This document shows positions 21,003-37,595 of a DNA stretch of 64,000 nt, piece after piece. This stretch comes from Chloroflexia bacterium (GTDB lineage Bacteria > Chloroflexota > Chloroflexia > QHBQ01 > JADMIH01): the NCBI GenBank assembly GCA_036388595.1, contig DASVRN010000269.1:1628-65627 (forward strand), written 5' to 3'. Each line of letters begins with the position of its first letter. The first letter of the stretch is position 1. Position numbers and translations under genes: made by a program. The notes beneath the pieces were generated by a model. That model ran no database searches, was not told the origin of the DNA, and saw only the letters and a program-made list of their open reading frames with translations.

Positions 21003-22973
21003 GTGGACAAGGCGCTGGTGGACCTCCAGCAGAACCCCTACCAGACGACCTATCTCTACCACCCCACCGGCCTCAACCTCTATTACCACTCCCTCAATCT
21101 GCTGAACGCCCTCGTCTCGATACCGTTACAGCACCTCTTCAACCTGACCGCCGCCTTCAACCTGCTGGTGCTGGCAAACCTCACGCTCGATGGGCTGGCC
21201 GCATACTGGCTGTGCCGCGAGCGCACGGGGTCAATGGAGGCGGGGCTTGTAGGTGGCGCGCTGTTCGCCTCTACCCCGCTGCTCGGCACCTCCCTCGATT
21301 TCGGGCAGTTGGACGAGGTCACGGTCTGGTGGGTGCCGCTTTATATGCTTGCGCTATGGCGGGCGCTGGACAGTCCCGGACCGGTGTGGAAGCCGGGGGG
21401 AGGCAGGCGAGCGTCCGTCTGTGCGGGATTGTGCCTGGTGGGGGCGTCGCTGGCTACGTGGTACTTTACCGCCGGGCTGGTGGTCTTTTCGGCCTTCTTC
21501 GTGCCCCTTCACCTGCTACAAAGGGATGGTGGGGGCACCCGGCAGTACATGGCGCGGTTGTGGAACGCGGGCCTCAAGGTTGGGGTAGCGGTGGCGCTCT
21601 TCGTGGTGCTGCTGAGTCCCCTGCTCTGGGCGATGATAAATGAGCGTCTTTCAGGCGAGACCTACATGCTACCCGCGCTAAGGACCACCATCTTCAATTC
21701 GGCTGACGTGCTGGCACTCTTCGCGCCGCCCCAGGTGGAACTGCCCGAGTTGAACGCCCACAACAGCACAGTGGCGTTAGGATACATAGCTATCGTGCTG
21801 GGCGTACTGGGGCTTGTGGTGCGCCGCAACCTCGCCCTGCCCCTGGGTGTGGCGTTGCTGGCGCTTATCGTCATGTCGCTCGGCCCGGTGCTCCAGGTCG
21901 CGGGCAGCGAGACTGGCGTGCCGATGCCTTATGCCGTGCTGAACAACGTGCCGTTCATCGGTGCCTCCCGACAGCCGCTGAGGTTCCTGGCGACCGCCGG
22001 CATGGTCCTGTCGCTCCTGGGGGCATATGGGTTCGCCTGGTGGATGGGTCGCCTTCGAAGTTCCGGCTTGCGGGCGCGGGTCACGGCGGGGATACTTCTG
22101 CTCGTCGCTATAGAGCTATTCGGAGTGCCGAGGCAGCTTGCTACGACACAGGCAGGTGAAGCGGTCGATTTCTTGCGGTCGAGCGCAGAGGCCGGTGCGG
22201 TCGTTGAGGTCCCTTTCGAGAATTATTCGGCCCTGTCCCTCCTGCACCAGACCGTACACGAGCGTCCAATCGTCGGCGGCTACACCTCGCGCCACTTCCC
22301 GTACCCCTTCGCGGACGCGGCACCGGGACTTGCTCAACTCGTACGCGAAGACCCGGCCCCGATGGTGGGAGCGGATGTCCTGCTGCCCGCTGTGCCTGAG
22401 ACGGCGCGTGGGAGCCTGGAATTTTACGGCATGCGCTACGTGGTGGTGCACAAGGGTGATCTGGCGACGGGCCGCTACGGGCAGCTAGAGGCGGTATTGG
22501 AGGCGCTGTTCGGCGGCGAGACCCCGGCCTACGAGGACGCGGATGTCGCTATTTACAGGGCAGCGGGACGAGAGGTTGCGGCAGGCGAGCAGTTGCCACT
22601 CGTGGGCCTGGGGAGTGGCTGGCACAGCGTGGAGCCGGACCCGACGCACAGGTGGACCGGCAGCAACGTGACCGACGGCAACGGGCTTGTCTGGATCGGT
22701 ATCCCGCCCGCGGCCGAGGGCACTTATCGCCTGCAAATGACCGCTTACGCCTACGACAAGCCCAGGACGCTCAGCATAGAGCTAGACGGCAGGTTGTTGG
22801 CTCAGCAGGCGCTTACCCCCGCCTTCACGGAGCTGGATATCGACCTGGGTCACCTGCGTACGGGCAACCACATCCTCTTGCTGAAGGCCCACGAGCCACC
22901 CGACAGCCCGCCCGGCGACGAGCGGAGACTGGCTATCGGCACGACTCGCCTGGCTATCGTGCGACAGCCCTAG
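21003..22973 (+). CDS. Large polytopic membrane protein (about 11 TM plus a 250-aa C-terminal soluble domain), GT-C-like, homologous to the 53372-55621 gene; the true N-terminus probably lies near 20870 (see findings)
   Basis: Hydrophobicity pattern; the N-region GSDAWLHLWDLWWVDKALVDLQQNPYQTTYLYHPTGLNLYYHSLNLLNALVSIPLQ aligns with the N-region of the 749-aa protein at 53372-55621. Confidence 0.5.
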   Translation: MDKALVDLQQNPYQTTYLYHPTGLNLYYHSLNLLNALVSIPLQHLFNLTAAFNLLVLANLTLDGLAAYWLCRERTGSMEAGLVGGALFASTPLLGTSLDFGQLDEVTVWWVPLYMLALWRALDSPGPVWKPGGGRRASVCAGLCLVGASLATWYFTAGLVVFSAFFVPLHLLQRDGGGTRQYMARLWNAGLKVGVAVALFVVLLSPLLWAMINERLSGETYMLPALRTTIFNSADVLALFAPPQVELPELNAHNSTVALGYIAIVLGVLGLVVRRNLALPLGVALLALIVMSLGPVLQVAGSETGVPMPYAVLNNVPFIGASRQPLRFLATAGMVLSLLGAYGFAWWMGRLRSSGLRARVTAGILLLVAIELFGVPRQLATTQAGEAVDFLRSSAEAGAVVEVPFENYSALSLLHQTVHERPIVGGYTSRHFPYPFADAAPGLAQLVREDPAPMVGADVLLPAVPETARGSLEFYGMRYVVVHKGDLATGRYGQLEAVLEALFGGETPAYEDADVAIYRAAGREVAAGEQLPLVGLGSGWHSVEPDPTHRWTGSNVTDGNGLVWIGIPPAAEGTYRLQMTAYAYDKPRTLSIELDGRLLAQQALTPAFTELDIDLGHLRTGNHILLLKAHEPPDSPPGDERRLAIGTTRLAIVRQP

Positions 22974-24290
22974 CCCCTCGGAATGGAGGCTGCCCTCAAC
23001 CAGGCGACCTCTAGCTGCTCGGCAACCGGGCCGAGTCTAAGTCCCTCAGCGACCTTCAACCCGTTGTCCCTTACCCGGCCGTACAGGTCTGACTCGGTGA
23101 GCAGGCGGATAATTGCATCCGCTATGGCCTGGGCGCTTCGTGGGGCTACTGCCATGGTGGCTTCGTATGGGGCGAGGTAGGAGGCCGCGCCGGTGGTCTC
23201 GCTCACCACGGTGGGGGTGCCGACCGCCGCCGCTTCGAGTGCGACCCTGTGCAGCGCCTCCACTACGCTTGGAGAGGTCACTACGTCGGCCCCGGCCAGG
23301 TGCTGCCTCACGTCAGGGTGGGCCACCTGCCCGGTGAAAATCAGGTGTTGCGCCACACCCAAATCGACCGCCCTCTTGAACAGGAACTCCCGGTAGTCGC
23401 CGTAGTTCTCGGTGCTCCTCGACGGCCCGCACAGCACGAACCACGGCACCGCCCTACCCTTCGCGCGCATGGCAGAGGCCACCAGGGGTATCGCATCCAC
23501 CAGATACTCCAACCCCTTGAACGGGTGCAGGCGGCTGAGCGACATGACTACCGGGCTGGGAAGCCCGATGCCGTAACGCTCGGACAGGTGTGCGCGACTG
23601 TGCCGCCTGAACTCGTCCAGGTCAACCACCGGCGGGGGGAAGGCGTTGTCCTCCAGCACACGAGGCACCATCACGATACGCGCTCGCTCGGCCAGGCGCT
23701 CGCCCAGCAGGTACCCTATCATGAAGGGCGAGTTCACCCGTATCAGGGCCGCCCGCCGCAACGCCAGGTTCACGGCCGCGCGAGGTAGCCGGAAGCGGCG
23801 GTAGCCGTAGTCGTTCTCGGGTAGCTCGATCACGTCCGCTCCCTGTGCGTTGGCTAGGTAAGGGGTCTTGCCCGCAGCGATTGCGGCCACCGCCCCGAAG
23901 GGGTAGACCCCCTCGACGTGCAGCAGGTCGTAGCGGTGTCGCTTCAGGTGGCGGCGCAGGGCGGAGAGGAGAGTGAAGGTGTGCTCGTACTTGAGGAAGT
24001 GCCCGGCGGCCCGCCTCACAAGCCCTGTCACGCGCCCGCCGGTGGTCGCGAGGTTTACCCGGTAGGTCGTCACGCCTGAGTAGGCTGTGCGGCTGTACCT
24101 GGGAACGCCCGGCTCGTTGATCTGGGTCAGCACCTCAACGTCGTGGCCTTTCGCCTTCAGGGCCAGTATCGCCTGTTCGTGCCCCACGTTGCCCATGAGG
24201 TCGGGGCTGTACGAGCCTATGAAGTAGAGCACGCGCAGGCTGCTGGCGGCGGCCACGCTCCCCGGCCCGTGTGATGTGTCTGGTATGGTC
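22970..24290 (-). CDS. GT4-family (GT-B fold) glycosyltransferase; start at ATG 24290 just after the S-layer gene terminator
   Basis: LRVLYFIGSY N-domain and E..7..E-like C-domain region (ALHRVALEAAAVGTPTVVSETTGAASYL). Confidence 0.65.
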
Positions 24291-24310
24291 ATGGGTGCAT
24301 TATATAACAG

Positions 24311-24351
24311 CGGGCAAAGCAAACACCCCACCGTGTAAGAACGGTGGGGTG
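24311..24351 (-). terminator. Rho-independent terminator of the SLH-protein gene (10-bp GC-rich stem CACCCCACCG/CGGTGGGGTG, then TTTGCTTTGCCC on the minus strand)
   Basis: Seen directly, 20 nt 3' of the stop codon at 24373. Confidence 0.6.
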
Positions 24352-24372
24352 TCTGATAGCGACCTGTGAGGC

Positions 24373-26823
24373 CTACTTGGTGGCGGCCGCGCTAGCCCCG
24401 GTGAAGGGGCCGATGGCCTGTGCCAGCATCTTGGAGATCTGCCCGCGTGTCACGTCCCTGTTGGGGCGGAAGTAAGGCTTGTTGCCCGCACCGCAAGGCT
24501 CGCCCGCACCACCGCAGGCGTAGCCTCCGATGATGCCCCGGCGGGCCGACTCCTCAACGAAGCCGAAGAGCGGGCTGTTAGCGGGCACGTCCTCGAATGT
24601 GGGCGAGCCGGGCCTGTATTCGCTCCAGCCACGCGACAGCACGATCATCTTGGCGGTCTGCGCGCGAGTTACGTTGTTATTGGGCCGGAAGTAGTTGCGC
24701 CCCGAGCCGTCGCACGGCTCGTTGGGGAGGCCACACTGGTATCCGCTGATGATGCCCCTGGCCGCCGCCGTCTCCACGAAGGTGTAGAGGGGGGAACTCG
24801 CGGGCACGTCCATGAAGCTGGGCGCGCGAGGGTTCACCAGGGTACCGCCCGCGCCGAGCACCACCATCTTGCTGAGTTGCGCCCTGGTAGCCGTCGCGCC
24901 AGGCCTGAAATGTATGGTGCTATCGGGCTGGCCGTAGCCGTTGATGATGTTGCGGGCCGCGAGGTTCGCTATGTCGTTCGCGAACGGGTTGTTCGTCGGC
25001 ACGTCGGTGAAGATCGTGCTAGCCGAGCCATGGTCGATACGCACGGGCAAGAGACTGTAAAACTGGCTCGTGTTGGTCCCATCGCTGGCAACGGCATACA
25101 CCCAGTAGTCGGTGCCGTTCGGCAAGCCGCTCGTATTCCAGCCCGCCTGGCCCTGGTCGATAGGCACGTTGGCGGCGATAAGCTGGCCGTTGAAGCCCGA
25201 GTTGTTGGTGTCGTAATAGAGACTCACGGTGGCGTTGCTACTGCCCTGCACCTTGCCCCAGCGCACGAGCGTGGCGTTGTTCGCGAAAGGCTGCGACATC
25301 AGGTGGGCGCTCTGGACGCGGAAGAAGGGCAGGTTCACGGGAGGCTGCTTCTGATCGTCCTCTTCATGCGGGTCCAGGCGGAAGACCCTTATAGGACCCG
25401 ACCAGCCGTAAGAGGGCGCTCCAGGGATCTTCGGGATAGTCGCCAGGTCCACGGACATCGGTATCCAGCGGTTGTACTGGGCGTACATGCCCTCGGTTTG
25501 CACCCACTCCGACCCTGAACCCTGGTTCCAGGTAAAACGCGGGCCGAGATTGCCCTTGGAGCCGGGGTGCTGGCTGGGAGCCTGTAACCACAGTTTCACC
25601 GTCATATAACGGTAGCGGCTGGCGTCCACACTGCCACGGTCCTGCCCGTTGTAAGGGTAGAGCCAGTAGATAGAGGGGTCCTCCACCGTGGTGCCCGGCA
25701 GCGTCCTGGAAGTAGCCTGTAGATACTCGCCGTTAAAGGTAGGAGGGCCTGTGAGGTTCTCGTATAGCTGCAACTGGTTGGGGTTGGCGCCGTCCCAGAT
25801 CTGGCCCAGCCGGGCCGCCGCGAAGTCCTCGCCGCTCAGGGGGCCGGGGGCCAACACCTGGACTACGGGCGCGGTATTTACCGTGATGGGGCCGGTGGTG
25901 CTCCACTGGCCGTTTTGCTCCCCGTGGATGTAGTACGTGCCGGGGGCCACACCTGTGCGGTTCCAGGTCCAGCTACCCGCTGTGGCGCTGGTGCTGCCTA
26001 TCTGCATCTCCCTCGCATTGTGGTCGGGGGTCAGACCGAGGTAGAAATTGACCGTCGAGCTACCGTCGGGGCGGAAGGTCACATTGACGGGGGTGGAAGT
26101 ATCGGGAGCCATACGCACCCAGTCGAACTTTACGTTGTTGCCGTACATGTTCCACGGAGCGTCCATGCGGATACCCGCCACCGTGCCGAGGTTCGCCCAG
26201 TTCTGGGGTTCCGCGTTCAGGTTGGCCTCATAAATGTGCCAGCCTTGCTGCACGGTTATGAAGTCTTTGAGGTTGCAATTGCTACAGGGGGCACGCTCAC
26301 CGGGGTTCTTGAACCACCAGAGCATCATGCGCCCGGCCTGCTCGGAGTACATCCTGAAAACGAGGCGGGTGTATCGCTGGGTGGGCACGGGGTAGTTGCG
26401 GCCGTCCTTTTCGCCCATGTAGGAGAAGGTGGTGGCGAAGTTCTGCTCCACCAGCATCACGAACATTTCGGGGTTGCTTGAGGAGCCGGTGGTGGTCGCG
26501 CTCCAGATGCCGTTGCTGAGTGTAGGTTGGGTGAAGTTGTGCGGATAATCGAGGTCGTCGGGGTTGTTCATGTCCCACGGGTCGCCCTGCACCTGGGTGG
26601 CATAGTCGTCGGACTCGGGTATGGTAACGGCGCCAGGCCCAGTCAGCGTGAAGTTGCCGCCTGTGGGGTTGTTGGCGTTCTCCTCCGCCTGGGAGGCTTC
26701 TTGACCAAGGGCTGACCCGGATGCCGAGCTACCAGGAAAGAAGGCCGCGGGCAGGAGGACTAGCGCCGCCAGGACCAGCGCGCCGAGTTTGCCAATGCCA
26801 TTGATTCGTGCTGAATGCATCAT
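24373..26823 (-). CDS. Secreted 816-aa protein with N-terminal signal peptide, large W/N/G/T-rich beta-type domain and three C-terminal SLH (S-layer homology) domains; candidate S-layer (glyco)protein
   Basis: Signal MMHSARINGIGKLGALVLAALVLLPAAF; three SLH repeats FTDVPTNNPFANDIANLAARNIINGY...TRAQLSKMVV / FMDVPASSPLYTFVETAAARGIISGY...TRAQTAKMIV / FEDVPANSPLFGFVEESARRGIIGGY...TRGQISKMLA. Confidence 0.75.
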   Translation of the reverse strand: MMHSARINGIGKLGALVLAALVLLPAAFFPGSSASGSALGQEASQAEENANNPTGGNFTLTGPGAVTIPESDDYATQVQGDPWDMNNPDDLDYPHNFTQPTLSNGIWSATTTGSSSNPEMFVMLVEQNFATTFSYMGEKDGRNYPVPTQRYTRLVFRMYSEQAGRMMLWWFKNPGERAPCSNCNLKDFITVQQGWHIYEANLNAEPQNWANLGTVAGIRMDAPWNMYGNNVKFDWVRMAPDTSTPVNVTFRPDGSSTVNFYLGLTPDHNAREMQIGSTSATAGSWTWNRTGVAPGTYYIHGEQNGQWSTTGPITVNTAPVVQVLAPGPLSGEDFAAARLGQIWDGANPNQLQLYENLTGPPTFNGEYLQATSRTLPGTTVEDPSIYWLYPYNGQDRGSVDASRYRYMTVKLWLQAPSQHPGSKGNLGPRFTWNQGSGSEWVQTEGMYAQYNRWIPMSVDLATIPKIPGAPSYGWSGPIRVFRLDPHEEDDQKQPPVNLPFFRVQSAHLMSQPFANNATLVRWGKVQGSSNATVSLYYDTNNSGFNGQLIAANVPIDQGQAGWNTSGLPNGTDYWVYAVASDGTNTSQFYSLLPVRIDHGSASTIFTDVPTNNPFANDIANLAARNIINGYGQPDSTIHFRPGATATRAQLSKMVVLGAGGTLVNPRAPSFMDVPASSPLYTFVETAAARGIISGYQCGLPNEPCDGSGRNYFRPNNNVTRAQTAKMIVLSRGWSEYRPGSPTFEDVPANSPLFGFVEESARRGIIGGYACGGAGEPCGAGNKPYFRPNRDVTRGQISKMLAQAIGPFTGASAAATK

Positions 26824-27015
26824 ATTTTGAGTGAGTTCCTTTCAAAAGGTGCTTATCGCGCCCGTGTATAGGTGTGCCTTTCTCTAGATTGGCTGTATGG
26901 TCAAGTTAAGTTTACCAGTATGGTGGGTAATAAGCCAGTGCTAAAGGGGCTACGGCTGTCGGACAATGGTCTTGGCGGGCACCCGGACTTAAGGGCTAGT
27001 AGCACATGTAGGCTG

Positions 27016-28233
27016 TCAGGCGGCCCGGACTTCGCGGTACAACGCCTCAATCCGGCCAATTAGGTCGGCTTCGGAGTAGCGTGCCAGCGTGTCGCGGCCG
27101 CCTTCAACGAGCCGCATGCGCAGACCCGGCTCGGACAGCAGGCGAACTATGGCCTGGGCGAGCGCATGGGGGCTTTCAGGCTCAACCAGCAGGCCGTTCA
27201 CCTCGTGCCGCACCATCTCTCTGACCACGGGCAGGTCGGTAGCGATTACGGGACAACCCGCCGACATGGCCTCCAGGGGTGGCAGGCCGAAGCTCTCATA
27301 GCGGGTGGGGTAGACCAAACAGTCGGCCGAGCGCATGAGCCGCACCTTGCTCTCCTCGTCCACCTTCCCCAGCAGGACCAGGTTGTCGATGCTGCCGTTC
27401 TCGCGGCAAATGGCCTCCAGGTGCCCTGCCCTGGCGGGGTTTTGCCCGGCAAAGAGGAATGTAGTCGTGGGGCACCTGTCGAGCACCAGTGGCATAGCGT
27501 GGGCCAGGGTGTCGTAGCCCTTACGCTCCTTCAACTGGCCCAGGAAGAGTACGTGCGGCGACGGGTAGCCCGCAGACATAGACTCGCTGTACGGCACCGA
27601 TTCTATATAGGGCACGTCCACCCACAGCGGGATCATGGTTATCTTGCGCTCTCCCATACCGAGACGCTTGAGCACGCCTACCTCGTGCAGGGAAAGCGCA
27701 ATAAGGCGGTCGGCGGCGCGCAAGGGGAAGTGCATGCAGAAATTCTGCCATATAGAGAGCGGCTTCTTACCTTTCGATTTCACAAGCTCTCTAACGAGGC
27801 GTGCCGGGGTGTAGATCAGCCGTCCGGGGTACATCTTGCCGCTATAGGGGCGCTCGCGGTCGTCCACAAGGTAGGGGTCGTGGAAAGGCCCGACCACGGT
27901 AAACACGGCGGGCCGCCGCGCCGATTTGGCCCAGAGCGCCGCCTGCCAGTTAAGGGCGTTTCGCAGGTGGAACAGGTGCACCACGTCAGGGCGGAACGCG
28001 GTCAGCGCGGGGAGCAAGCTAGGTGCCAGCCAGGCTTTGTTCACGCGCACCCTGTGGACTTCGATGCCGTCCACGTTCTCGCGAGCTTCGGCGGTGATTT
28101 CCGAGTCTTCCTCGCGCAGGGTGAAGGCCGCTACGGTGTGGCCTCTAGCGACGAGGGCGCGCCCAAGCACCGCCTCCGGCCACTGGCGGAACTGCCGCGT
28201 CACCCCGGTGGTCGTGACAATCGCTACTCGCAT
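27016..28233 (-). CDS. GT4-family glycosyltransferase
   Basis: MRVAIVTTTGV N-domain; YESFGLPPLEAMSAGCPVIATDLPVVREMV. Confidence 0.75.
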   Translation of the reverse strand: MRVAIVTTTGVTRQFRQWPEAVLGRALVARGHTVAAFTLREEDSEITAEARENVDGIEVHRVRVNKAWLAPSLLPALTAFRPDVVHLFHLRNALNWQAALWAKSARRPAVFTVVGPFHDPYLVDDRERPYSGKMYPGRLIYTPARLVRELVKSKGKKPLSIWQNFCMHFPLRAADRLIALSLHEVGVLKRLGMGERKITMIPLWVDVPYIESVPYSESMSAGYPSPHVLFLGQLKERKGYDTLAHAMPLVLDRCPTTTFLFAGQNPARAGHLEAICRENGSIDNLVLLGKVDEESKVRLMRSADCLVYPTRYESFGLPPLEAMSAGCPVIATDLPVVREMVRHEVNGLLVEPESPHALAQAIVRLLSEPGLRMRLVEGGRDTLARYSEADLIGRIEALYREVRAA

Positions 28234-29829
28234 CTACAGGTACCTCAGCACGACGTTTGCGAAGGGGACGCGCAGGCTGGAGAAGCGCGTTTTGTCCTCC
28301 TGGTCCATGCCCCCAAGCAGTCTGAACATCACGTAGAAGACCAGCGCGCCCGTGACGATCATGGCGAGCGTGGGCAGCGGCGTGGGTGGGAGGAACGCCA
28401 GGAACGGCAGCAGTACCGCCCCCATGACTGCCGAGGCAAATCCCACACGCACAAAGAACTCGCCCGGAAATCTCAGCCCCACACTCCGTGTCGCGTAGAC
28501 GAGGGCCACGAGCCTGGAGGAGAGGGCCGCTACGGAGGCGGCGATGGCGGCCCCCGTAACTCCAATCGTGGGCACAAGTACGAGCACAACCGGTATGCTG
28601 GAGAGGGCGAAGAGCCTGGCTGTAATCACCGCCCGGTAATCTTCGTGCACCATCAGCACGTTCAACACCACGCTGATTATCGCCTCCCCAAACAGGCCCA
28701 CGGTCAGTATCACCACGCAGGCTACTGCGGCGGGCATCTTGGGTTCGGTGAGTACCGCGTCCGAACCAACCTGGAGAAAGAACACGCTCAATAGGTTGCG
28801 GGCTGTCAGAATCAGGCCGACGCCTGCGGGCAGCAGGGCGAGAATGAGAAACTTCGTCAGGGTGGCGTAAGCGGTGCGCAGACCGTCCATACGGCCCTCT
28901 GCGTATAAGCGGGCGAACAGGGGCGTCTGCACGCCCGTCAGGGGCACCACGAGCGACCGGAGAAACTGCTTGGTGACCCGGTATGCAAGCCCGAGGATGG
29001 CGATCTGCACCTTCTCGGCGTCCTCCGCCACCACAATCAGGGTGATCATGATAGTGAAGAAAGGCAGGTCGTACAGGTTGACCGACCAGTTTATCAGGTA
29101 GTTCAGCCCGGCGAAGCCGACAATGCGGTCGCGGAGGGACCTGGTGGACGGGCGTTTCACATCGGCTGCCTTCGGGTGCGGCTCGGCATCGAGGGAAGCG
29201 AGCATCGCCCAGGCCTGCCACACGGATAGCACCACCGACACGACGGTAGTAATAAGCAGGGCGAGCATCATGCCCAGGGCACCCCATTCCAGGGCGACGA
29301 ATATGGAACTCAGCACGGGGAGGGCAACGCTGGCGAGCACATCCAGGGCGTTGGTAATTTTCTGCCGGAAGTGCGTGTACAGTAGCTGTATGGTTACATC
29401 AGACATCGCGCCGAGGGCCAACAGCACGCCGATCATGAGCAGGAACCAGACACCCTGCTCGCCCAGGTTAAACCAGGATATCCAGAAGTTGGGAGCGGCA
29501 GCGAGGGCCAGTATCAGCACGAGCAGCACCGCGCCCTTGATGGCACTTATCCACAGGAGCAGCCGCAGGATGCCCCGGCGGCCGTAGCGCATCTCGATTT
29601 CAGGGTAGAAGCGCGGCAGGGTGCGCTCGATGCCGAGGTCCACCACCAGCCCAAACCCGTTAAGCAGGGAAGTCACCACGAGATACAGCGCCCAGCCCTC
29701 GGTCCTGAGCAGGCGCACGGTGATGATGCTCGCGCCAAACGCCACCAGCACCTTCAGAGGGAAGAAGGCGGCGTTCCAGAAGGCGGCCAGACCGGCTCGT
29801 TCGACTAGTGGTTTGGTGTCCCTGCTCAA
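28234..29829 (-). CDS. Wzx-like oligosaccharide/polysaccharide flippase (MOP superfamily, polysaccharide biosynthesis protein)
   Basis: 531 aa, about 14 predicted TM segments in two halves; the N-terminal amphipathic region FWNAAFFPLKVLVAFGASIITVRLL is typical of PF01943/PF13440 proteins; it abuts the downstream GT4. Confidence 0.6.
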   Translation of the reverse strand: MSRDTKPLVERAGLAAFWNAAFFPLKVLVAFGASIITVRLLRTEGWALYLVVTSLLNGFGLVVDLGIERTLPRFYPEIEMRYGRRGILRLLLWISAIKGAVLLVLILALAAAPNFWISWFNLGEQGVWFLLMIGVLLALGAMSDVTIQLLYTHFRQKITNALDVLASVALPVLSSIFVALEWGALGMMLALLITTVVSVVLSVWQAWAMLASLDAEPHPKAADVKRPSTRSLRDRIVGFAGLNYLINWSVNLYDLPFFTIMITLIVVAEDAEKVQIAILGLAYRVTKQFLRSLVVPLTGVQTPLFARLYAEGRMDGLRTAYATLTKFLILALLPAGVGLILTARNLLSVFFLQVGSDAVLTEPKMPAAVACVVILTVGLFGEAIISVVLNVLMVHEDYRAVITARLFALSSIPVVLVLVPTIGVTGAAIAASVAALSSRLVALVYATRSVGLRFPGEFFVRVGFASAVMGAVLLPFLAFLPPTPLPTLAMIVTGALVFYVMFRLLGGMDQEDKTRFSSLRVPFANVVLRYL

Positions 29830-29905
29830 AGTGCGGTGCCAGGGCTAATGCTTGCCAAATGACGGGCCAAGCTCAAAATGCGTGCCATTGAGAGACTACC
29901 GGGGG

Positions 29906-32698
29906 TCATGGGGCAGGCTCCACGCGCAAGGCGTCAATCTGCACCCCAAGCGCGCGAGGGTCGTTGCCAAGTCCAGCGGGCCGCCCGGACCATGTAGGCG
30001 TGAATACGTGCAGCAGGCCGGTAGCCGGATCGCTCTCTGTCTTGGGGGTGCCCGGCGGTACGGTGAAGGTGTACTCCCTGAAATCGGTACCCGGCTCCAC
30101 CACGACCTGCCCTATCTGAGTGTCATCCAAAGCCACCGTGATTGTCAAGGGTTCGGTCCGTAGCACCGGGCTACCTTCCACAGGCGTCTCGGGCCGCATG
30201 CTCAGGGTGACACGTGTGCCCTGGTAGGTGGCTGCGCCGGGTGTCCCGGGTATAGGCACTCGCAGGACGGCATGGCCCCCGGTCCAGCGCCAGAAACTCT
30301 CTCCTCCGTCGCTGGTCTCCTGCTTGTTGAAGCCCGCCACCAGCCACGGGTAGTCCATCTCGCCAACGTCCAGCGAGAAGGGCAGTGCGGAAGGTTGGGG
30401 GGCGGCGGGTTCGACCCTGTAGATGCCCCACGGCAGGTAGGCCCGCGAGACGTTGGTGGGCTTCTGGTAGTACAACTGCTCGAACTCGTCAACGTCGTAC
30501 TCCCAGCTACCGACCTCCCGCAGCGATAGGTCAGTGAAGTGGGCCTTGCCGCCGTTCACGCCCATCATCATGTAGACTTCCCACCCCTCCGACTGCCACC
30601 GCTTAATTATTTGCTGCACTATGTCGCTGCGCAGGTTCGGGTACTCGCGCACGAGGACAAAGCTCTCAATGCCATAGATAAAGTGCAACGGGGTGGAAAT
30701 GAGGTACGGTTCGTCGCGCCCGTCGCTGAACAGCACCACGGTCTTGCCGGGGTTTGGGAAGCGGGAGGCGAGGTCGTTCAGTTGCGCCACCGCGCCGCGC
30801 TCCTCGACGTGAGGTATGATGGCCCGCGACGTGTAGATGTAGAACACGCCCAGCCCCAGGACTATCACACCCGCGAGGGCCGCACCCACCACCCTGGGAC
30901 GAACACGGGACCATAGCCACTGGCAAAACCAGGCCACCCCCAGCAGCAGCGCGGGGAGAATTATCGGCACGTAGCGGCGCATGGTGTAGATGAAGTGAGC
31001 GTCGGTGTAGGTCTCCTGCACGAAGACGAAGCTCAGGATGAGGAGCATCGCGAAGAAGAGTCCAGTGGCGGCGTTGAGGCGGGTCCAAATCCAGCGCAAC
31101 AGGCCAGGGATCGCCAGCAGCATAGCAAGGGGCGACAGGTACCAGCCGATGCGCAGCAGGTTGTAACGGCTGCCCTGGTCTACGGGTGCCCCTATGTAGC
31201 TCTCCCAGGTGGTGTTCACCAGTTGGGGGAGCCTCTCACCCGCGTCCGTGGCGCGCACGTTGGGCAGCCAGGGGCCGACGAGGTAGTTGAAGGCCATGTA
31301 GCCGCCCACCAGGAGCATCAGCGCCCCCGCCCAGAGCCACCTGTACCGGGCCGCCAAGCCCTCCACGCGCAGCCACAGAGGGGCCAGTCGAGGGTGCAGC
31401 CGGTCGAGCGCCACCAGAGCGATAGTGCCCGCGTAGAGCGCCAGCAGCAGCGGTCCCCAGAGCCTGCGGGTCTTCTGTATGACGTTATGGTACAGGTCGA
31501 GCGTGTAGGCGAACCCGTAGACGCTCAGGTGGACCGCGTATATGCCCAGCACTACGGCCAGGCTGCCGAGCAGCCAGGTGTGGGCGCGGTGCCAGCGTCT
31601 CGTCAGCCGCCAGTAGATGAGGTACGCGGGTAGGGGCGCGAGGTAGAAGATGAAATCGGGCCGGGCAAGCGCCATCTCCCCCAGCGACACACCGGCGATA
31701 ATTCCAAACAAGGCTGCCCACACGGTGCGGCCTTCGCTGTCTGCCTGCAACGGCTCCTCGTGAGTCGTTGTTAAGTCAGACGAAACAGGGCCTTCTCTGG
31801 TAAGCTGCACCATCCGCATGAAGGCATAGCACGCGCTGAAAACCAGCACGCCCATGAGCACTTCCGACACCGGGTAGCGCGCGAACCAGATGGTTATCGG
31901 GCAAAGCACCAGCAGCGCCAGCGCGGCCAATGCCGACCCCTGGCTGAACGCACGCCGCGCGAAGAAGTAGACAGCCGCCACACCCAGCATCGCCAGCAGG
32001 GGGTTGGCGTAGAGGCCCCCCCAGATGCCGAACAGGCTGTAGAGCAGCCCTATCCAGACGGGCAGCAAGGAGTAGTGCTGAGGCATCACGAGCGCGGCTT
32101 GCTTGTCGAGCACGTAGAAACCCGCCATGCGCAGGTTAGCCAGAGTGTAGCGGTCGCGGGACATGCCCTGCATTAGCTCGTTTACCTCGCCCTTATCGTT
32201 GTCGAGGTAGCGCATGAGCATATCGCGCTGGAAGATCGTGCCACTGCGAGCGAGCGACACCCCGGCGTTTACGTACACCCCGGAGTCGAGCGCCCCGCGC
32301 AGCATCTCGGCGGGCCGCGAGAACAACCCGGCTGCCACCAGCAAAGTGACAACCAGGCAAGCGGTATGAAGACGAGCGAAACGGCGCTCCTCGGCCCTCT
32401 GGGGTTGCGGCGAAGGAGGCAGCATGAGGCGTACGAGGGATGAGAGACCCTGCCGATAGCCGCCCAGCATCAGGGCCGCAATAAGGCTGAACGCCAGCAA
32501 CAGGGCGAACAGTAACCAGGGCCGGAACATGCCTATCTGCGCGAGTATTAGCCCTACGCCACTCGTCAGCAGGAAACTAACGAGCACAGCCGTGAAGAGC
32601 CATTCGTCGGTGCCAGAGAAGACGTGCCTGCGGGCCGACCGGGCGCCCAAGCAGTTGAGGAGCACGGCCCCCGGCGCGTACAGCAGGAACGCGAGCAC
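29906..32698 (-). CDS. 930-aa polytopic membrane protein with a large C-terminal extracytoplasmic domain; GT-C-fold glycosyltransferase-like (ArnT/PMT-like architecture)
   Basis: Roughly 13 TM in the N-terminal 520 aa, followed by a soluble beta-rich domain; context. Confidence 0.4.
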   Translation of the reverse strand: MLAFLLYAPGAVLLNCLGARSARRHVFSGTDEWLFTAVLVSFLLTSGVGLILAQIGMFRPWLLFALLLAFSLIAALMLGGYRQGLSSLVRLMLPPSPQPQRAEERRFARLHTACLVVTLLVAAGLFSRPAEMLRGALDSGVYVNAGVSLARSGTIFQRDMLMRYLDNDKGEVNELMQGMSRDRYTLANLRMAGFYVLDKQAALVMPQHYSLLPVWIGLLYSLFGIWGGLYANPLLAMLGVAAVYFFARRAFSQGSALAALALLVLCPITIWFARYPVSEVLMGVLVFSACYAFMRMVQLTREGPVSSDLTTTHEEPLQADSEGRTVWAALFGIIAGVSLGEMALARPDFIFYLAPLPAYLIYWRLTRRWHRAHTWLLGSLAVVLGIYAVHLSVYGFAYTLDLYHNVIQKTRRLWGPLLLALYAGTIALVALDRLHPRLAPLWLRVEGLAARYRWLWAGALMLLVGGYMAFNYLVGPWLPNVRATDAGERLPQLVNTTWESYIGAPVDQGSRYNLLRIGWYLSPLAMLLAIPGLLRWIWTRLNAATGLFFAMLLILSFVFVQETYTDAHFIYTMRRYVPIILPALLLGVAWFCQWLWSRVRPRVVGAALAGVIVLGLGVFYIYTSRAIIPHVEERGAVAQLNDLASRFPNPGKTVVLFSDGRDEPYLISTPLHFIYGIESFVLVREYPNLRSDIVQQIIKRWQSEGWEVYMMMGVNGGKAHFTDLSLREVGSWEYDVDEFEQLYYQKPTNVSRAYLPWGIYRVEPAAPQPSALPFSLDVGEMDYPWLVAGFNKQETSDGGESFWRWTGGHAVLRVPIPGTPGAATYQGTRVTLSMRPETPVEGSPVLRTEPLTITVALDDTQIGQVVVEPGTDFREYTFTVPPGTPKTESDPATGLLHVFTPTWSGRPAGLGNDPRALGVQIDALRVEPAP

Positions 32699-32742
32699 CG
32701 GGATGCCGACAAGCAGCTTAACTATATCCAGCAGGGACGTAA

Positions 32743-33987
32743 CTAGACCTCCTGAGAGCGGCAGGCGTTCCGCTCGTCAATCAGACGCCGCAGGAGCATC
32801 TCGGTTTGCTCGGCTATGCTCCGCCAGCTAAACTCGGCAGCCACCTTGGCGGCAGCCCGCTCTCCCATGACTCTGCGCTCGGCGGGACTCTGCGCCATCC
32901 GCACAATGTGGGTCGCCAACTGTGCGACGTCGCCGGGGCGCACAAGGTAGCCTGTCTCGCCATCGATTACCTTGTCCGGTATGCCACCTACGGCGCTGGC
33001 TACCACCGGCAGGCGGTGCGACATAGCCTCCAGGGTGACCAGCGAACTGCCCTCATAAAGCGACGGGTGGGCGAACAAGTCCGACATGGCATAGAGGTTG
33101 TGCAGTTCCTTATCTGCGACGGACCCGGCGAGAAACAGGTGGTTATCCAGTCCCAACTCTCTAACGAGGGCCGTGAGTTGAGGTTTCAGGGAGCCTTCAC
33201 CCACGAGTAGCCAGCCCCAACTCTCGCCAATCTGCGGGCGTGCCTCGGCCAGCGCGCGCAGCAGGTACTCGAAGCCCTTGTTCTGCTCCAACCTACCCAC
33301 GCTTATGCCCCTAAGTGTATCATCCCCGGCGGCGAGATGCGGCCATTTTAGCGCGAGTGCCGCTCTCATTTCCTCCGAGGCGTGCGAGTGGATTTCGTCC
33401 AGGTCCACGCCGTTTGGGACGACGACCACCTTCTCCTCGCGCAGGCCCAGCAGAGTCACCAGTTCCGACTTGATGGAACGATCTGTGGCTATGACGGCAT
33501 CCGCTGACCGGCAACCCGATCTCACCCAGGCTCGGAACGGGGCGTAAGCCAGCCTCTTGAGCGGGTGGCGGACCTTGAACTCCTCGAGGCCGTGCGGGTT
33601 GGCTACCAGGGGCACCCCCCAGCGTCCCACACGCCGCACTCCCCAGGCGCAGAGGCCGTGCGCGTACACAGCCGACAGCGAACCGGCCCGCGCCTGCGCG
33701 CTCACCCGCCGCCCCATCTCCTCAACGAAGGAGCTGTAGTTGGTCAGCCGCGCCGGGATGCCGTTGGGAGGCAGGGGAAACCTGCCGTAGCGCACGGTAT
33801 GGACGGCGAGACGACCCTTAGCACCCTCCGTCGCCACAAATGGCATCCCCGCAGGAAAGGCCCGCGTGTAAAGGTCTAAGTCTACGCCACGTTGGAGCAT
33901 ATTGCGTGTCAGGGCCGTGGCCGCGCGCTCCAAACCGCCGTAGCCATGTTGCGGGAAGACGGCACGCACGCAGTTGGCGACTCTCAC
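32743..33987 (-). CDS. GT4-family glycosyltransferase
   Basis: YEGSSLVTLEAMSHRLPVVASAVGGIPDKV E..E motif; GT-B two-domain length. Confidence 0.75.
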   Translation of the reverse strand: MRVANCVRAVFPQHGYGGLERAATALTRNMLQRGVDLDLYTRAFPAGMPFVATEGAKGRLAVHTVRYGRFPLPPNGIPARLTNYSSFVEEMGRRVSAQARAGSLSAVYAHGLCAWGVRRVGRWGVPLVANPHGLEEFKVRHPLKRLAYAPFRAWVRSGCRSADAVIATDRSIKSELVTLLGLREEKVVVVPNGVDLDEIHSHASEEMRAALALKWPHLAAGDDTLRGISVGRLEQNKGFEYLLRALAEARPQIGESWGWLLVGEGSLKPQLTALVRELGLDNHLFLAGSVADKELHNLYAMSDLFAHPSLYEGSSLVTLEAMSHRLPVVASAVGGIPDKVIDGETGYLVRPGDVAQLATHIVRMAQSPAERRVMGERAAAKVAAEFSWRSIAEQTEMLLRRLIDERNACRSQEV

Positions 33988-35321
33988 TGCCCGCCACCCC
34001 TTTGCGCGAGGAGGGAGCGGTATAGCGCCTCTACCTGGGCGGAGACGGCCGGGGCCGCAAATTTGTCTTGCGCCCGCTGCCTGGCGCCACGACGCAGGCG
34101 GGCGTTTAGCTCAGCGTTGGTTACCACGGCCCTTGCGCCCGCGACAAACTCGTCAAGGTCACTGGCGAGCCAGCCGCTGGTGCCGTGCTCGATAACATCG
34201 GACGTGCCCCCGGTGTTGAGGGCTACTATCGCGGCACCTGCGGCACACCCTTCCAGGAGCACCCTGCTGAGGGGTTCCTGCCACGCGGAGGGGAACAGGA
34301 GCGCCACCGCCCTATTCATCAGCCTGAGCACGGCATCGTTGTCCAGCCAGTCATAGAAGCGGAAGTCGAGGCCCAGTTCAGCAGCCTCTGCCGCGAGGCT
34401 CTCCCGCCACGGCCCATCCCCTGCTACGACCACCGGCATGTCTACGGCGGCACGTGCAAGCACCTTCGGCAGTTGCCATGCTCCTTTGTTCGTATCCAGC
34501 TTGCCCGCGAATAGCAGGAACTTGTCCTCAGGGGATATGTCGTGCAGGGGCCACTCGCCGCCAAGTGCGCGGTCCACACCGGGCAGGTCCATCAGGTTGG
34601 GGATGACGTTCAGGCGAGAAGCAGGCACCCTACCGCTCCGTCTCAACTCGCGACCGACGTAGCTGCTAACGGCGATTACCGCGCCGACCTTTGCGAGGTT
34701 CCGGCTGTCAGCCAATGTGTTCAACCACCGTGCGAGGTCGAGTGGGATACGTGCCGCACCACGCAGGCCCTTTCGCTGGGCGCAACGAAGATGGATTGGC
34801 AAGCGGTGGCAATCTTCGCATTCAAACGCCTCGATATCCGATGCCTCAAAGAGCCTAGTGCTCACCGGACAAAGCGGCCAATAATCGCGCACCGTCACCA
34901 CGGACACGAAGTTGCTTCGTGCCCTCGAAGCCGCCCGCACAGCCGCTATGCCGGACACCTGGTGCTGTCCGTGCAGCACGTTTATAGTTCCGTTAGCGGC
35001 TAGGGACGCTGCTCGCTTCTCCAACAACCCTCGCGCTTTGCGTTGCGACCATGCTTTGCCTGCTCCTGCCCTCACCGCCCAGGCGGGAGGCTCAGGTACA
35101 AGCACCTCCTCTACCGCCAGTGCCTCATACCGTGTGGGACGCCGCGCGGGTTTGCGTACCTTGCTGCCATAGACGGGACGAAGCACGGTCACATGGTGCC
35201 CTCGCTCCGACAGCGCCTTGCCGAGATAGTACGTGCTCCAGCCGCTGCCACCACTTTTGGGAGGAAAAACGTCGGTGAGCAGGCACACACCCAGGTTTTC
35301 GGGCTGCGAGGAGTCACGCAT
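33984..35321 (-). CDS. GT4-family glycosyltransferase; start at ATG 35321 (MRDSS) to avoid the 160-nt overlap implied by the listed ORF
   Basis: LLTDVFPPKSGGSGWSTYYLGKALSERGHHVTVL N-domain; QEPLSRVLLEGCAAGAAIVALNTGGTSDVI. Confidence 0.7.
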   Translation of the reverse strand: MRDSSQPENLGVCLLTDVFPPKSGGSGWSTYYLGKALSERGHHVTVLRPVYGSKVRKPARRPTRYEALAVEEVLVPEPPAWAVRAGAGKAWSQRKARGLLEKRAASLAANGTINVLHGQHQVSGIAAVRAASRARSNFVSVVTVRDYWPLCPVSTRLFEASDIEAFECEDCHRLPIHLRCAQRKGLRGAARIPLDLARWLNTLADSRNLAKVGAVIAVSSYVGRELRRSGRVPASRLNVIPNLMDLPGVDRALGGEWPLHDISPEDKFLLFAGKLDTNKGAWQLPKVLARAAVDMPVVVAGDGPWRESLAAEAAELGLDFRFYDWLDNDAVLRLMNRAVALLFPSAWQEPLSRVLLEGCAAGAAIVALNTGGTSDVIEHGTSGWLASDLDEFVAGARAVVTNAELNARLRRGARQRAQDKFAAPAVSAQVEALYRSLLAQRGGGQ

Positions 35322-36501
35322 GAGCGATCTTCCGTAGGATGCGGTCGAGCGCGACACAGTGGGCCTGCCAGCTATAGCTCGCCACCACCCGTTGCCGCGC
35401 AGATGCTCCAACACTGTCGCGCAAATTGTGGTCCTGAGCAAGTCGCTCCAACGCCAAAGTGAGACCAACCACATCGCCCGTGCGGAATAGTAAGCCTTCC
35501 CTACCCTCTCGCACGATATCGTTCAGCGGCGGAATGTCGATAGTAACGACCGGCAGGGCCATAGCCATGTACTCGAATACCTTCAGCGGCGACCAGTAAA
35601 AGCCGAACTCCGCCAGCGGGGCGTGAGAAGCCACGTCGAAGGGTGCCACCCCGATGTCGGCCAGTGAGAGTAGTTCCGGGATGCGCTCGTGGGGTTGAGG
35701 CCCGGTAAAGACGAAGCGGCCCGGCGGCAATCCCCAGGAGGCCACCCGTGACTTCAATCCCTCAAGCTCCGGCCCACCGCCTACCGCCAGGAACGAGATG
35801 CCGCTACCAACTTGCACCAGTCGCCGCGCGGCCTCCGCGAAGTGCTCTACACCGTGCCAGCGTCGAAAGCTGCCCAGGAATACGGCTATGGGGTAGTCGA
35901 GCACCATGCCAAATTCGTCCGCGAGGGCCTGCTTCGCCGCACCCTGCAAGCGGTTCTCCGGGTCGAAACGCTCAATGTTGGCACCCCAGGGTAGTTCGTG
36001 GATCTTCTGGCGGGAAACTTCGGGCGGTACCGTGGTTGCCAGCGGCGTTACTATCGCGTCACTCCACCGGCCCTGGGTGGCCGCCCAGCGGCGCATCGAG
36101 CCAAGCAACAAGCCGTCGAGCCGCGTCTTCAGGCTGCCCGGCGGGTCGACCATAGGGGCGTTTACTTCGAGCAGCGAAGGTATACCTTGCCGGTGCGCCA
36201 GCATTACCCCAGCACCGGCGAAATTGTAGAAGCGTTCCATCACCACGTCAGGTCGGAAGCCCTGGATGGCGCGGCGCACCTTCGGCAGTCCCAACAGGGC
36301 GAACTCTTTGCGCCAGCGCAGGCCACTCACCGGCACATCGCACTCCAATTGCCCAGGTGCCGACTCCCCTTTGCTCTGCCTGGACAGCACAAGCACCTTA
36401 TGCTCTAGCTGTTGCAGCCCGCACGCCACCTCCTGAATATGTATTGAGCCGCCGGACGTGCCGAACGCTTCCACCGCTCCGGCCACGTACAGCACTCTCA
36501 C
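35314..36501 (-). CDS. GT4-family glycosyltransferase; GTG start inside a GTGA overlap with the upstream stop (VRVLYVAG...)
   Basis: FDVASHAPLAEFGFYWSPLKVFEYMAMALPVVTIDIPPLNDIV. Confidence 0.7.
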   Translation of the reverse strand: MRVLYVAGAVEAFGTSGGSIHIQEVACGLQQLEHKVLVLSRQSKGESAPGQLECDVPVSGLRWRKEFALLGLPKVRRAIQGFRPDVVMERFYNFAGAGVMLAHRQGIPSLLEVNAPMVDPPGSLKTRLDGLLLGSMRRWAATQGRWSDAIVTPLATTVPPEVSRQKIHELPWGANIERFDPENRLQGAAKQALADEFGMVLDYPIAVFLGSFRRWHGVEHFAEAARRLVQVGSGISFLAVGGGPELEGLKSRVASWGLPPGRFVFTGPQPHERIPELLSLADIGVAPFDVASHAPLAEFGFYWSPLKVFEYMAMALPVVTIDIPPLNDIVREGREGLLFRTGDVVGLTLALERLAQDHNLRDSVGASARQRVVASYSWQAHCVALDRILRKIAHA

Positions 36502-37595
36502 CCTGCCACCTCGCCGCCAACCTTCCGCGCCAGCACGAAGTACGGACCCGCCCGCCAGCTTCCAAAGAGCACCAGATCGAGCCACATTAGACGCGTGAGC
36601 AGCATCATCGCCTTGTATTCGGGGCCGCGCCTTACCAGCCGCTGCTTTACGTCGCGGCGCATAGCATCCTCTCCACCGCCGCCTGCCCCGTTCTGGCCTG
36701 GACTCGCTTGCGCCTTTCCCTTCATTCGTCGCATGGCCGATTCGGCCAGTTTCACCACCAGATTCTCGATGATGCTCTGGAATAGCCCGTTCCAGAAGAC
36801 CACCTTCTCAACCTGGAAGCCGCACTCGCACATCACCCTTTCCAGATCGGGGTAGGTCTCCAGGGCCTTGACGTGGTCCGACTTGCGGAGGCGGTCGCGA
36901 GTGTCGTCCAATACGCCACGTTCGCCAAGCCAGCGGGAGAGCCGCCGGACGGTCCGCACGATGAAGTCCAGGCGGGAACCCTCGCGGGTGTTAGAGAAGA
37001 GGAAGAGCCGCCCGGTGCCATCCAGCACGCGGTTGGCCTCGCTGAGGAAGGCACGAATGTCTTCCAGCGGCAGGTGCTCCAGTACGTCGATGGACATAGC
37101 GGCGGTGAAGGTGCCATCGGGGAACGGCAGCACGCGGGCATCGGACAGGCACAGGTCGAGGCCCTGCAACGCCTCCCGTGCGAAAAGCGGGGCCGGATCG
37201 ACGCCCACCGCCCACTCGACCGTCTTCCTGTTCCAGAAGACGAACTTGCCGTTACCGCAGCCTAACTCAATCAGGCGGTCCTGGGCACTGGGCCTGAGCA
37301 TCTCGAGGATGGCACGTTGGCGAACGGCAGCCCCCAGGAGCGGTATGCCGATACGCTTGTAGTCGAGGGCCGCGTCGAACTCATCTCCGTGCGAAACGTA
37401 GAGGGAGGTGTGCTGCCCGCGCTCCGGGGGCATCAGCTCGATGTAACCTGCCGGGTTCATGCGGTAGCGGCTCTCACAGCGCGGACACTGAAGCGCACTC
37501 CTCCAACGGCGGGTGAGTGAGGTGCCGGTGCCCCAGCGTTGTATGCACTCCGGGTTGACGCAGCAAACGGTCCGGAGCAGTCTGTCAGAGATCAA
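36498..37595 (-). CDS. Class I SAM-dependent methyltransferase with an N-terminal Cys4 zinc-ribbon
   Basis: CCVNPEC...CPRCESRY zinc ribbon; motif I LIELGCGNGKF; motif region SIDVLEHLP. Confidence 0.7.
   Translation of the reverse strand: MISDRLLRTVCCVNPECIQRWGTGTSLTRRWRSALQCPRCESRYRMNPAGYIELMPPERGQHTSLYVSHGDEFDAALDYKRIGIPLLGAAVRQRAILEMLRPSAQDRLIELGCGNGKFVFWNRKTVEWAVGVDPAPLFAREALQGLDLCLSDARVLPFPDGTFTAAMSIDVLEHLPLEDIRAFLSEANRVLDGTGRLFLFSNTREGSRLDFIVRTVRRLSRWLGERGVLDDTRDRLRKSDHVKALETYPDLERVMCECGFQVEKVVFWNGLFQSIIENLVVKLAESAMRRMKGKAQASPGQNGAGGGGEDAMRRDVKQRLVRRGPEYKAMMLLTRLMWLDLVLFGSWRAGPYFVLARKVGGEVAG

Follow-up and report, generated by a model that had tools for sequence, protein, structure and literature searches.

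The 64,000-nucleotide stretch of DNA analysed here (the window, from contig DASVRN010000269.1 of a Chloroflexia bacterium) holds the gene of a surface protein with three C-terminal S-layer homology (SLH) repeats, embedded in a large locus for surface-glycan assembly. The protein is secreted by the Sec route, anchored by its SLH repeats, and encoded in a transcription unit of its own, and its N-terminal module belongs to a family that is genetically coupled to surface-glycan assembly. SLH-anchored surface proteins are known already, and this gene, which had been automatically annotated as one of them, would be ordinary taken alone. The new element is its cargo, a large and undescribed secreted family specific to glycan loci, with approximately 98% of the sampled copies lying in glycan-assembly operons.

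The SLH-bearing protein and its transcription unit

The open reading frame (ORF) coincides exactly with the one proposed in the initial annotation, and its 816-amino-acid (aa) product, of about 85 kDa, is identical to GenBank HEX8231042.1 from a Chloroflexia metagenome-assembled genome (MAG), recorded as 'S-layer homology domain-containing protein'. Approximately 47 full-length homologues are found, all of them in MAGs of uncultured Chloroflexia sampled from soil, deserts, and Antarctica. A sequence search of the whole protein against the PDB yielded nothing relevant, and NCBIfam holds no family for the protein or for its stand-alone relatives, which consist of the N-terminal module without SLH repeats.

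The cleavable signal peptide claimed previously is borne out by an n-region MMHSARINGIGK, an h-region LGALVLAALVLLPAAFF, and a c-region PGSSASGSALG, likely cleaved after A34 or A38, and followed by a short low-complexity linker that extends to around residue 57. Orthologues carry the same n/h/c pattern, and residues 1–54 are disordered (predicted local distance difference test, pLDDT, <50) in the AlphaFold2 (AF2) model. The computed pI is 4.9 for the exposed part of the protein and 9.4 for the SLH part.

The three SLH repeats annotated in the C-terminus are recovered by a Pfam scan (PF00395) as three stretches, with 82.2 bits against a cutoff of 20.8 (E=2.5e-23). In the predicted model, they fold as one pseudo-trimeric domain, like the wall-polymer-binding domains of Sap and SpaA. 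Each repeat has a T-R-A/G-Q motif whose arginine (R647, R720, and R793) never varies among the family members compared (34 of 34), and an anionic wall polymer is therefore the expected ligand; judging from the model, the SLH triplet should hold the protein non-covalently on the cell wall. Repeats 2 and 3 also contain C-x6-C insertions (residues 697–704 and 770–777; window 24376–24816, minus strand), which probably form disulfide-stapled loops and represent a lineage-specific SLH variant. In the alignment consensus, this insertion (GYxCGGxGEPC) is common to unrelated SLH proteins of the same Chloroflexia lineage.

The 192 bp upstream of the gene (26824–27015) are, as had been noted, of lower GC content (49.5% compared to 62.6% for the window). 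A generic sigma-70 scan found no promoter for the SLH gene, and the promoter call is based on the upstream regions of 12 orthologues, which were compared with one another. Each of these locus-resident orthologues (12 of 12) has a single TAnAnT hexamer, often preceded by an upstream TG, between −68 and −91 relative to the start codon, where chance would give approximately 0.2 per 300 nt. A 5'-untranslated region (UTR) of roughly 60–85 nt is predicted from these comparisons, with no significant structure (z=−1.0) and no Rfam match. It would include a strong Shine-Dalgarno (SD) sequence (GAAAGGA), kept as AAAGGA or AAAGGT in 11 of the 12 orthologues, 12–20 nt 5' of the start. Further upstream, a GTCC-containing pair (AAGTCC, around 18 nt, and TTGTCC, at 26985–26990 and 26961–26966 on the minus strand, about −165 and −141 from the ATG) is conserved in the orthologous loci L001, L006, L008, and L024, some 50–75 nt upstream of the −10 box, and may represent the binding site of a regulator.

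Downstream of the gene, the GC-rich hairpin terminator previously placed at 24311–24351 is found close to that position. The hairpin, followed by UUUGCUUUG, has a folding energy of −35.4 kcal/mol (z=−4.1), and none of 200 shuffled sequences folds as well. A strong hairpin with a T-tract lies directly 3' of the stop codon in 9 of 13 orthologues; because the hairpins at this place are built from at least six unrelated sequences, the comparison lends good support to a real terminator. The following gene, encoding a glycosyltransferase of family 4 (GT4), starts at ATG 24292 and not at the GTG 24331 of the mechanical ORF list. The arrangement of its TATAAT box is kept in orthologues whose sequence otherwise differs, and this gene is probably transcribed from a promoter of its own into a leaderless mRNA, in which case the SLH gene would not be co-transcribed with it. 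The conservation of the −10 box, the SD sequence, and the terminator, together with the probable separate promoter of the GT4 gene, supports the monocistronic unit with its own terminator described in the initial annotation; read-through from the upstream operon into the SLH gene may also occur.

Coordinates of the SLH gene, its encoded domains, its flanking signals, and the surrounding locus (window positions)
Feature	Position	Strand	Description and basis
SLH-anchored surface protein gene	24373..26823	minus	ATG start, 816 aa; ORF list
Signal peptide, residues 1 to ~38	26710..26823	minus	hydropathy, n/h/c layout
Beta-sandwich 1, residues 58-242	26098..26652	minus	CBM-like jelly roll; starts with DDYATQVQGDPWDM, ends FDWVRM
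Ig-like domain 1, residues 243-317	25873..26097	minus	AF2 model
Beta-sandwich 2, residues 318-512	25288..25872	minus	diverged repeat of beta-sandwich 1; motif FRLDPHEEDD
Ig-like domain 2, residues 513-598	25030..25287	minus	AF2 model; weak Kre9_KNH match
Three SLH repeats, residues 599-669, 670-742, 743-816	24376..25029	minus	Pfam; one wall-binding domain
Extended -10 promoter-like element TGGTAAACT	26909..26917	minus	94 nt upstream of ATG; comparative conservation
Shine-Dalgarno sequence GAAAGGAA	26836..26843	minus	conserved in orthologues
Intrinsic terminator	24312..24355	minus	15-bp GC-rich stem 24355-24320 plus U-rich tail
TATAAT box (24304-24299) and ATG (24292) of downstream GT4 gene	24290..24304	minus	6-nt spacing
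Surrounding glycan-assembly locus, ~39 kb	22970..62084	minus	family scans, conserved synteny

The N-terminal module, its family, and its glycan loci

The large beta-type region that had been recognised in the N-terminal part of the protein is resolved by the AF2 model (pLDDT 85.7; predicted template modelling score, pTM, 0.83) into four domains, spanning residues 58–598 and predicted to form a rigid module. They are laid out as two successive pairs of a beta-sandwich resembling carbohydrate-binding modules (CBMs) and an Ig-like domain, where the two halves represent a diverged duplication (internal repeat E=1.8e-4) and each sandwich is opened by a D(F/Y)A..LGDPWDM-type motif. The model of a stand-alone member (pLDDT 89.3; pTM 0.86) shares this four-domain arrangement. 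For both of these independent models, the best structural matches are non-catalytic CBMs, and the predicted module exhibits the beta-jelly-roll fold of type-B CBMs. No GH16, PL7, or similar jelly-roll enzyme appears among the top 60 matches of the fold search, and no solved structure covers the whole chain.

Sets of Asp, Arg, Trp, and Tyr residues are near-invariant across 294 family members, including, in beta-sandwich 2, W343, D382, Y404, R429, D459, W474, R482, D484, and E487. Moreover, the identities of the N-terminal domains (0.45–0.51) are close to those of the SLH repeats (0.54–0.59). With N-terminal domains nearly as conserved as the anchor and near-invariant polar sets, this pattern fits a conserved ligand site better than a freely drifting lattice surface.

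Such a site could also belong to an extracytoplasmic enzyme or assembly factor (a glycanase, a transglycosylase, or a ligase-like protein) that acts on the glycan of the locus while held at the wall by the SLH repeats. Jelly-roll folds are known to host glycanases and lyases, beta-sandwich 2 contains a cluster of near-invariant charged residues (D382, Y404, R429, D459, R482, D484, and E487), the other SLH cargo of the lineage is largely enzymatic, and the association with glycan operons described below is as tight as that of pathway enzymes. However, the fold search points to non-catalytic CBMs, no Pfam or NCBIfam enzyme family matches the N-terminal module, and duplicated domains with Ig spacers are typical of binding proteins, making an enzymatic role unlikely.

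Homologues of the module are mostly found outside SLH proteins. The module is collinear with an SLH-less protein of 946 aa (E=2e-32), and its profile scores SLH-less proteins at 1e-47 to 1e-105. In a profile search of 1.84 billion representatives, the family comprises 5,906 clusters (at 50% identity) at E<=1e-10, and 1,315 at E<=1e-30. Most members are proteins of approximately 600 aa that consist of the module alone, with SLH repeats in only 2 of the 146 top representatives. A signal-peptide-like N-terminus, directly followed by the motif NDFAT..L.DPWDM, is present in 69 of 73 members, and the 816-aa protein, with its signal peptide and collinear four-domain module, belongs to this 'DPWDM' tandem beta-sandwich family, whose characteristic motifs are D[FY]A..LGDPWDM, LRxDP, and DWxRL. 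The module is conserved between phyla at 25–30% identity. All members with a source name are designated 'hypothetical protein' and lack Pfam domains, the named taxa being Chloroflexi, Calditrichaeota, and Acidobacteriota MAGs, while a tblastn search of 72,556 plasmids gave no module match. This family is large, undescribed, and without a Pfam or NCBIfam model, and on sequence grounds its module has evolved as a separate unit, independent of the SLH repeats.

The initial annotation had placed the gene beside a locus of glycosyltransferase, GT-C, and methyltransferase genes. This locus is confirmed, and is much larger than described, with about 11 GT4 genes, three methyltransferases, a Wzx-like flippase located two genes upstream of the SLH gene, and around ten polytopic GT-C-like proteins. 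The latter include three PMT_2-like proteins (one with C-terminal tetratricopeptide repeats, TPR), a DUF2079 protein, a YfhO-like protein, four tandem paralogues, and one unassigned protein, and they hint at an elaborate, extracytoplasmically built wall polysaccharide in uncultured soil Chloroflexia. The locus is of the Wzx plus GT-C type: with a threshold as loose as E<=1, the window yields neither a Wzy_C O-oligosaccharyltransferase nor Wzm/Wzt, and it also lacks TagO/TagA-like or priming transferases and nucleotide-sugar genes. The gene order GT4-GT4-GT4-GTC930-Wzx-GT4, SLH protein, GT4-(YfhO-like)-hpt-tilS-pepF is kept in a dozen MAGs, and the slot of the SLH gene between GT4 genes is preserved even where the identity of its product has fallen to 47%. 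With tilS set aside, no product of this block is less conserved than the SLH protein (47%, compared to 55–81% for the other neighbours).

The SLH-less relatives occupy comparable positions. All five that were looked up (5/5) lie co-directionally inside glycan operons, which carry Wzm/Wzt, WsaF-like giants, GT2 and GT4 enzymes, Wzy_C, and priming transferases. The comparison was extended to 79 further metagenomic loci, with flanking ORFs labelled against seeds of known Pfam identity. At least one glycan gene is present in 52 of the 53 stand-alone module loci, and at least two in 44 (3.78 glycan genes per 10 kb), almost all of them on the same strand as the module gene. Among the control loci, those of other SLH proteins from the same Chloroflexia lineage, only 10 of 41 have one or more glycan genes, mostly generic ABC ATPases, and 4 of 41 have two or more (0.26 per 10 kb), while the SLH-bearing copies outside the locus yield 3 of 12 and 0 of 12, respectively (0.16 per 10 kb). 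Glycan-assembly genes are thus approximately 15-fold enriched around family members, across phyla. Given that SLH-less relatives also reside in glycan operons, it is the N-terminal module, and not the SLH repeats, that ties the gene to the locus, and, because these outgroups are locus-resident as well, residence in glycan loci looks ancestral.

This pattern also bears on whether the position of the gene is incidental. The protein could be a generic adhesin, anchored through SLH, with CBM-like domains that recognise polysaccharides from the surroundings (for instance, plant or microbial debris), an idea that would suit a soil or desert bacterium with a glycoside hydrolase (GH)-like gene elsewhere in the window, and a fold that resembles the modules of plant-polysaccharide degraders. 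With synteny kept down to 47% identity and a same-strand enrichment in glycan genes that extends across phyla, an incidental location is very improbable.

In a neighbour-joining tree, the stand-alone SLH-bearing copies fall into two groups, one basal and one nested, and the locus-resident copies are paraphyletic, which rules out a model of two clades, one locus-resident and the other stand-alone; both kinds of copies co-occur in single MAGs. A tandem pair of SLH-bearing family proteins, with 40% and 38% identity to the 816-aa protein, lies outside any glycan locus in MAG CAWARZ01 (locus L022, 10001–14700). Two further proposals were discarded. The adjacent GT4 gene and the module do not form a conserved cassette, as the GT4s located downstream in SLH-less loci form an orthologous group to which that of the window does not belong, and the 954-aa gene upstream of homologue P0015 is unrelated to the 930-aa GT-C protein of the window.

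Possible roles at the cell surface

The SLH triplet is the general wall anchor of this lineage. Related SLH triplets, C-terminal in approximately 45 of 50 cases (related Chloroflexia loci L031–L079), are present in many further proteins from the same MAGs, which carry Amidase_2 domains, SLT transglycosylases, subtilases (Peptidase_S8), GH114, beta-propellers, and many unknowns as cargo. DUF5122, PQQ, Kelch, and FG-GAP propeller domains are also found among them, as is a recurrent protein of some 430–470 aa without known domains. A phylum-wide survey had reported the loss of SLH and of the pyruvyltransferase CsaB in Chloroflexi. The lineage studied here is an exception to the reported loss of SLH, and its rich SLH-anchored surface proteome, which contradicts a general SLH/CsaB loss, raises the question of what the SLH ligand is.

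One answer, contained in the initial annotation, is that the locus itself builds the wall polymer bound by the SLH repeats. The gene would then be there for its anchor, like sap and eag beside csaAB in Bacillus anthracis, and the product of the locus would be a secondary cell wall polymer. A lineage with so many SLH proteins must make such a ligand, the invariant SLH arginines lead one to expect an anionic one, and a Wzx-like flippase is encoded nearby. Nevertheless, it is the N-terminal module that is associated with glycan loci, also in relatives that lack SLH repeats, whereas the other SLH proteins of the lineage do not generally lie near such loci. In addition, the search for csaB that had been recommended, which covered the window and the flanks (±10 kb) of about 70 related SLH loci, turned up no CsaB-type pyruvyltransferase, while a Firmicute positive control was found, and the window has no TagO/TagA-like or priming transferase. 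These results argue against the proposal, which is considered improbable.

The explanation favoured here, with chances that we regard as evenly balanced, is that the wall-anchored protein acts as a partner, probably through glycan binding, of the polymer that its locus produces. The module would act together with the glycan produced by the encoding locus, its two CBM-like domains binding this polymer non-catalytically, and in the Chloroflexia lineage it would have been fused to the standard SLH wall anchor. The anchored protein would then tether or organise the polysaccharide built by the GT4 and GT-C enzymes on the wall, or coat this polymer with protein, and it is possible that such a coat is a crystalline S-layer. 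Non-catalytic binding is favoured because both models resemble CBMs, because of the conservation pattern, and because the anchor-less forms need to be retained at the cell.

A precedent for a surface protein that binds a cell-surface glycan is RsaA, the S-layer protein of Caulobacter crescentus, which binds the O-antigen (PMC6978808). Like RsaA, the window protein is a secreted surface protein that would depend on a specific cell-surface glycan, with binding predicted in its case, and its Asp-rich conserved sites might parallel the Ca2+/Asp-stabilised glycan pocket of RsaA (PMC6978808). The folds are, however, unrelated, as the N-terminal domain of RsaA is helical, and RsaA is exported by type I secretion. 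With regard to type-B CBMs (CBM4, 11, 22, 27, 28, and 29), the module domains share 5–14% identity with them, with no match to a CBM hidden Markov model, are not attached to a glycoside hydrolase, and have the motifs of their own listed above.

Several points weigh against a glycan-binding partner. First, glycan binding by the module is suggested by its predicted fold, and this CBM likeness lies at fold level, with no CBM family of Pfam found in scans of the 816-aa protein or its relatives. Second, the conserved acidic and Arg residues could equally be catalytic or form a purely structural Ca2+ site. Third, the genomic context reveals functional coupling without a direction, and the protein could be an acceptor of the glycan instead of its binder. 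Fourth, no universal partner gene is found, the best candidate being a family of approximately 357 aa beside Wzy_C in 15 of 84 loci. Fifth, some SLH-bearing copies have left the glycan loci, so the link is not obligatory. Finally, the retention of the anchor-less forms of ~600 aa at the cell is unexplained unless they bind glycan.

The initial annotation had described the protein as an S-layer (glyco)protein. Secretion, SLH anchoring, an independent transcription unit, and a stable position within a glycan locus agree with that description, whereas S-layer identity and the glycoprotein nature are not established. In its complete form, this alternative considers the protein as a lattice-forming S-layer glycoprotein and glycan acceptor, and the locus as an slg-like glycosylation cluster. 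Its signal peptide, its acidic exposed part followed by a basic SLH part, and its size are typical of such proteins. Chains of beta-sandwiches are common in S-layer proteins, with a Haloferax S-layer protein among the weak fold matches, and the SLH protein is among the least conserved genes of the syntenic block. The TPR on one GT-C protein of the window is a possible protein-recognition domain, and the loci of SLH-less relatives hold Wzm/Wzt, WsaF-like, and Wzy_C proteins, that is, the S-layer glycosylation toolkit of Geobacillus. Moreover, a monocistronic gene with a long 5'-UTR and strong SD and terminator recalls sgsE and sgtA, located beside slg clusters (PMC2943079).

Other evidence is less favourable to an S-layer glycoprotein. 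Because SLH triplets anchor a wide range of unrelated cargo in the same genomes, they provide a weak prior for S-layer identity. The codon bias of the gene is unremarkable (z about +0.8 to +1.1 relative to window genes) and lacks the signature of very high expression; as a proxy for expression, codon bias was set aside as uninformative. The many NxS/T sequons reported for the protein amount to 12, compared to 8.4±2.6 expected from composition, a number reached by 250 of 2000 shuffles. The mean z of the family is 0.7, most positions are without conservation, and one of the two best-conserved sequons is the SLH 'NVTRAQ' motif. Sequon enrichment or conservation was rejected as evidence of glycosylation, being at chance level and poor, respectively. 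In bacteria, S-layer glycans are O-linked, to Ser, Thr, or Tyr (PMC2943079). The window holds no Wzy_C O-oligosaccharyltransferase, a cross-phylum module with invariant polar sites is unusual for lattice domains, and S-layers have been seen in only some Chloroflexota, none of them assigned to a gene. An S-layer glycoprotein is therefore possible, although on balance doubtful.

In the SLH-anchored S-layer proteins Sap/EA1 from B. anthracis, SpaA from Paenibacillus alvei, and SgsE from Geobacillus stearothermophilus, the SLH repeats are N-terminal, while those of the window protein are C-terminal. Its exposed part is a cross-phylum CBM-like module and not a lineage-specific lattice domain, and no Wzy_C O-oligosaccharyltransferase or CsaB is found near its gene. 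The combination of a Wzy_C protein (WsaB/WsfB) and Wzm/Wzt that defines the slg clusters of Geobacillus and Paenibacillus is absent from the window and present in the loci of SLH-less relatives. C-terminal SLH triplets are also found in exoenzymes and cellulosome-anchoring proteins, such as clostridial xylanases and scaffold anchors. The window protein has this same design, with the cargo followed by the triplet. Unlike them, however, it has no catalytic or cohesin domain, and is tied to glycan synthesis rather than degradation.

Extending the idea of a glycan-binding partner to the whole family leads to a more tentative proposal, for which we have clearly less than even confidence. The DPWDM module might define a previously unrecognised and widespread class of secreted proteins, of at least 1,300 clusters at 50% identity in Chloroflexota, Acidobacteriota, Calditrichota, and others, co-encoded with a cognate surface glycan on which they would act, either as a glycan-tethered, S-layer-like coat or as a missing factor that assembles or tethers the glycan outside the cytoplasm in O-antigen-like pathways. 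Within this class, the window protein would be the version that a soil Chloroflexia lineage has fixed to its wall through SLH repeats. If the family were indeed a general glycan-tethered coat or assembly factor, its importance would be high. In any of these roles (tether, coat protein, or assembly factor), the module could supply an extracellular component that surface-glycan biology still lacks, which makes it a concrete candidate for testing.

Other features of the window and related loci

Among the GT-C-like proteins of the locus, four tandem paralogous membrane proteins of 658, 720, 740, and 686 aa, with 10–16 transmembrane (TM)-like segments, are encoded at 45215–53375 (minus strand). The 686- and 740-aa paralogues share 47% identity. 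None of the four has a Pfam family, and their GT-C-type similarity is faint, with an archaeal STT3 model at E about 3e-3, far below the cutoff. For these paralogues and the 930-aa GT-C protein, sequence and profile searches against the PDB are empty, with only weak generic GT-C matches (STT3/PMT_2). The 725-aa membrane protein at 58640–60817 (minus strand) combines a weak PMT_2-like region (E=0.002, over the full profile length) with the C-terminal TPR mentioned above, a layout that recalls protein-directed GT-C enzymes.

The YfhO-like GT-C gene (ORF 21003–22973, between hpt and GT4) has a conserved N-terminal TM segment, GLAWLLPPLFFLAWAVAFSFPLVLHLGDS, encoded in frame 5' of the first canonical start. 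No ATG, GTG, or TTG is present between the stop at 20796 and the GTG at 21003 (20796–21003, plus strand), and a canonical start is also missing upstream of this frame in the orthologues L006, L008, and L024, while the distant orthologue L001 has a normal Met start. Judging from these sequences, a non-canonical start is possible, for example a CTG at 20832 that would overlap the end of hpt.

In the loci of SLH-less relatives, the unlabelled family of approximately 357 aa lies directly upstream of Wzy_C (L081, L082, L150, and about 12 others), and may be an uncharacterised partner of this ligase-like protein.

Two tRNA(CAT) genes, the only tRNAs found in the window by Rfam, flank pepF on the plus strand (16257–16331 and 18451–18523). 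The first looks like an initiator, with a C1:U72 mismatch and a GGG/CCC anticodon stem, and the second, 120 nt upstream of tilS, could be an elongator tRNA-Met or the tRNA-Ile2 substrate of TilS. A 966-aa protein encoded at 4441–7341 (plus strand) shows weak matches to glycoside-hydrolase catalytic cores (Glyco_hydro_cc and GH39), and the protein encoded at 1417–2877 (minus strand) resembles ActD, a subunit of alternative complex III, as would fit a window of Chloroflexia origin.

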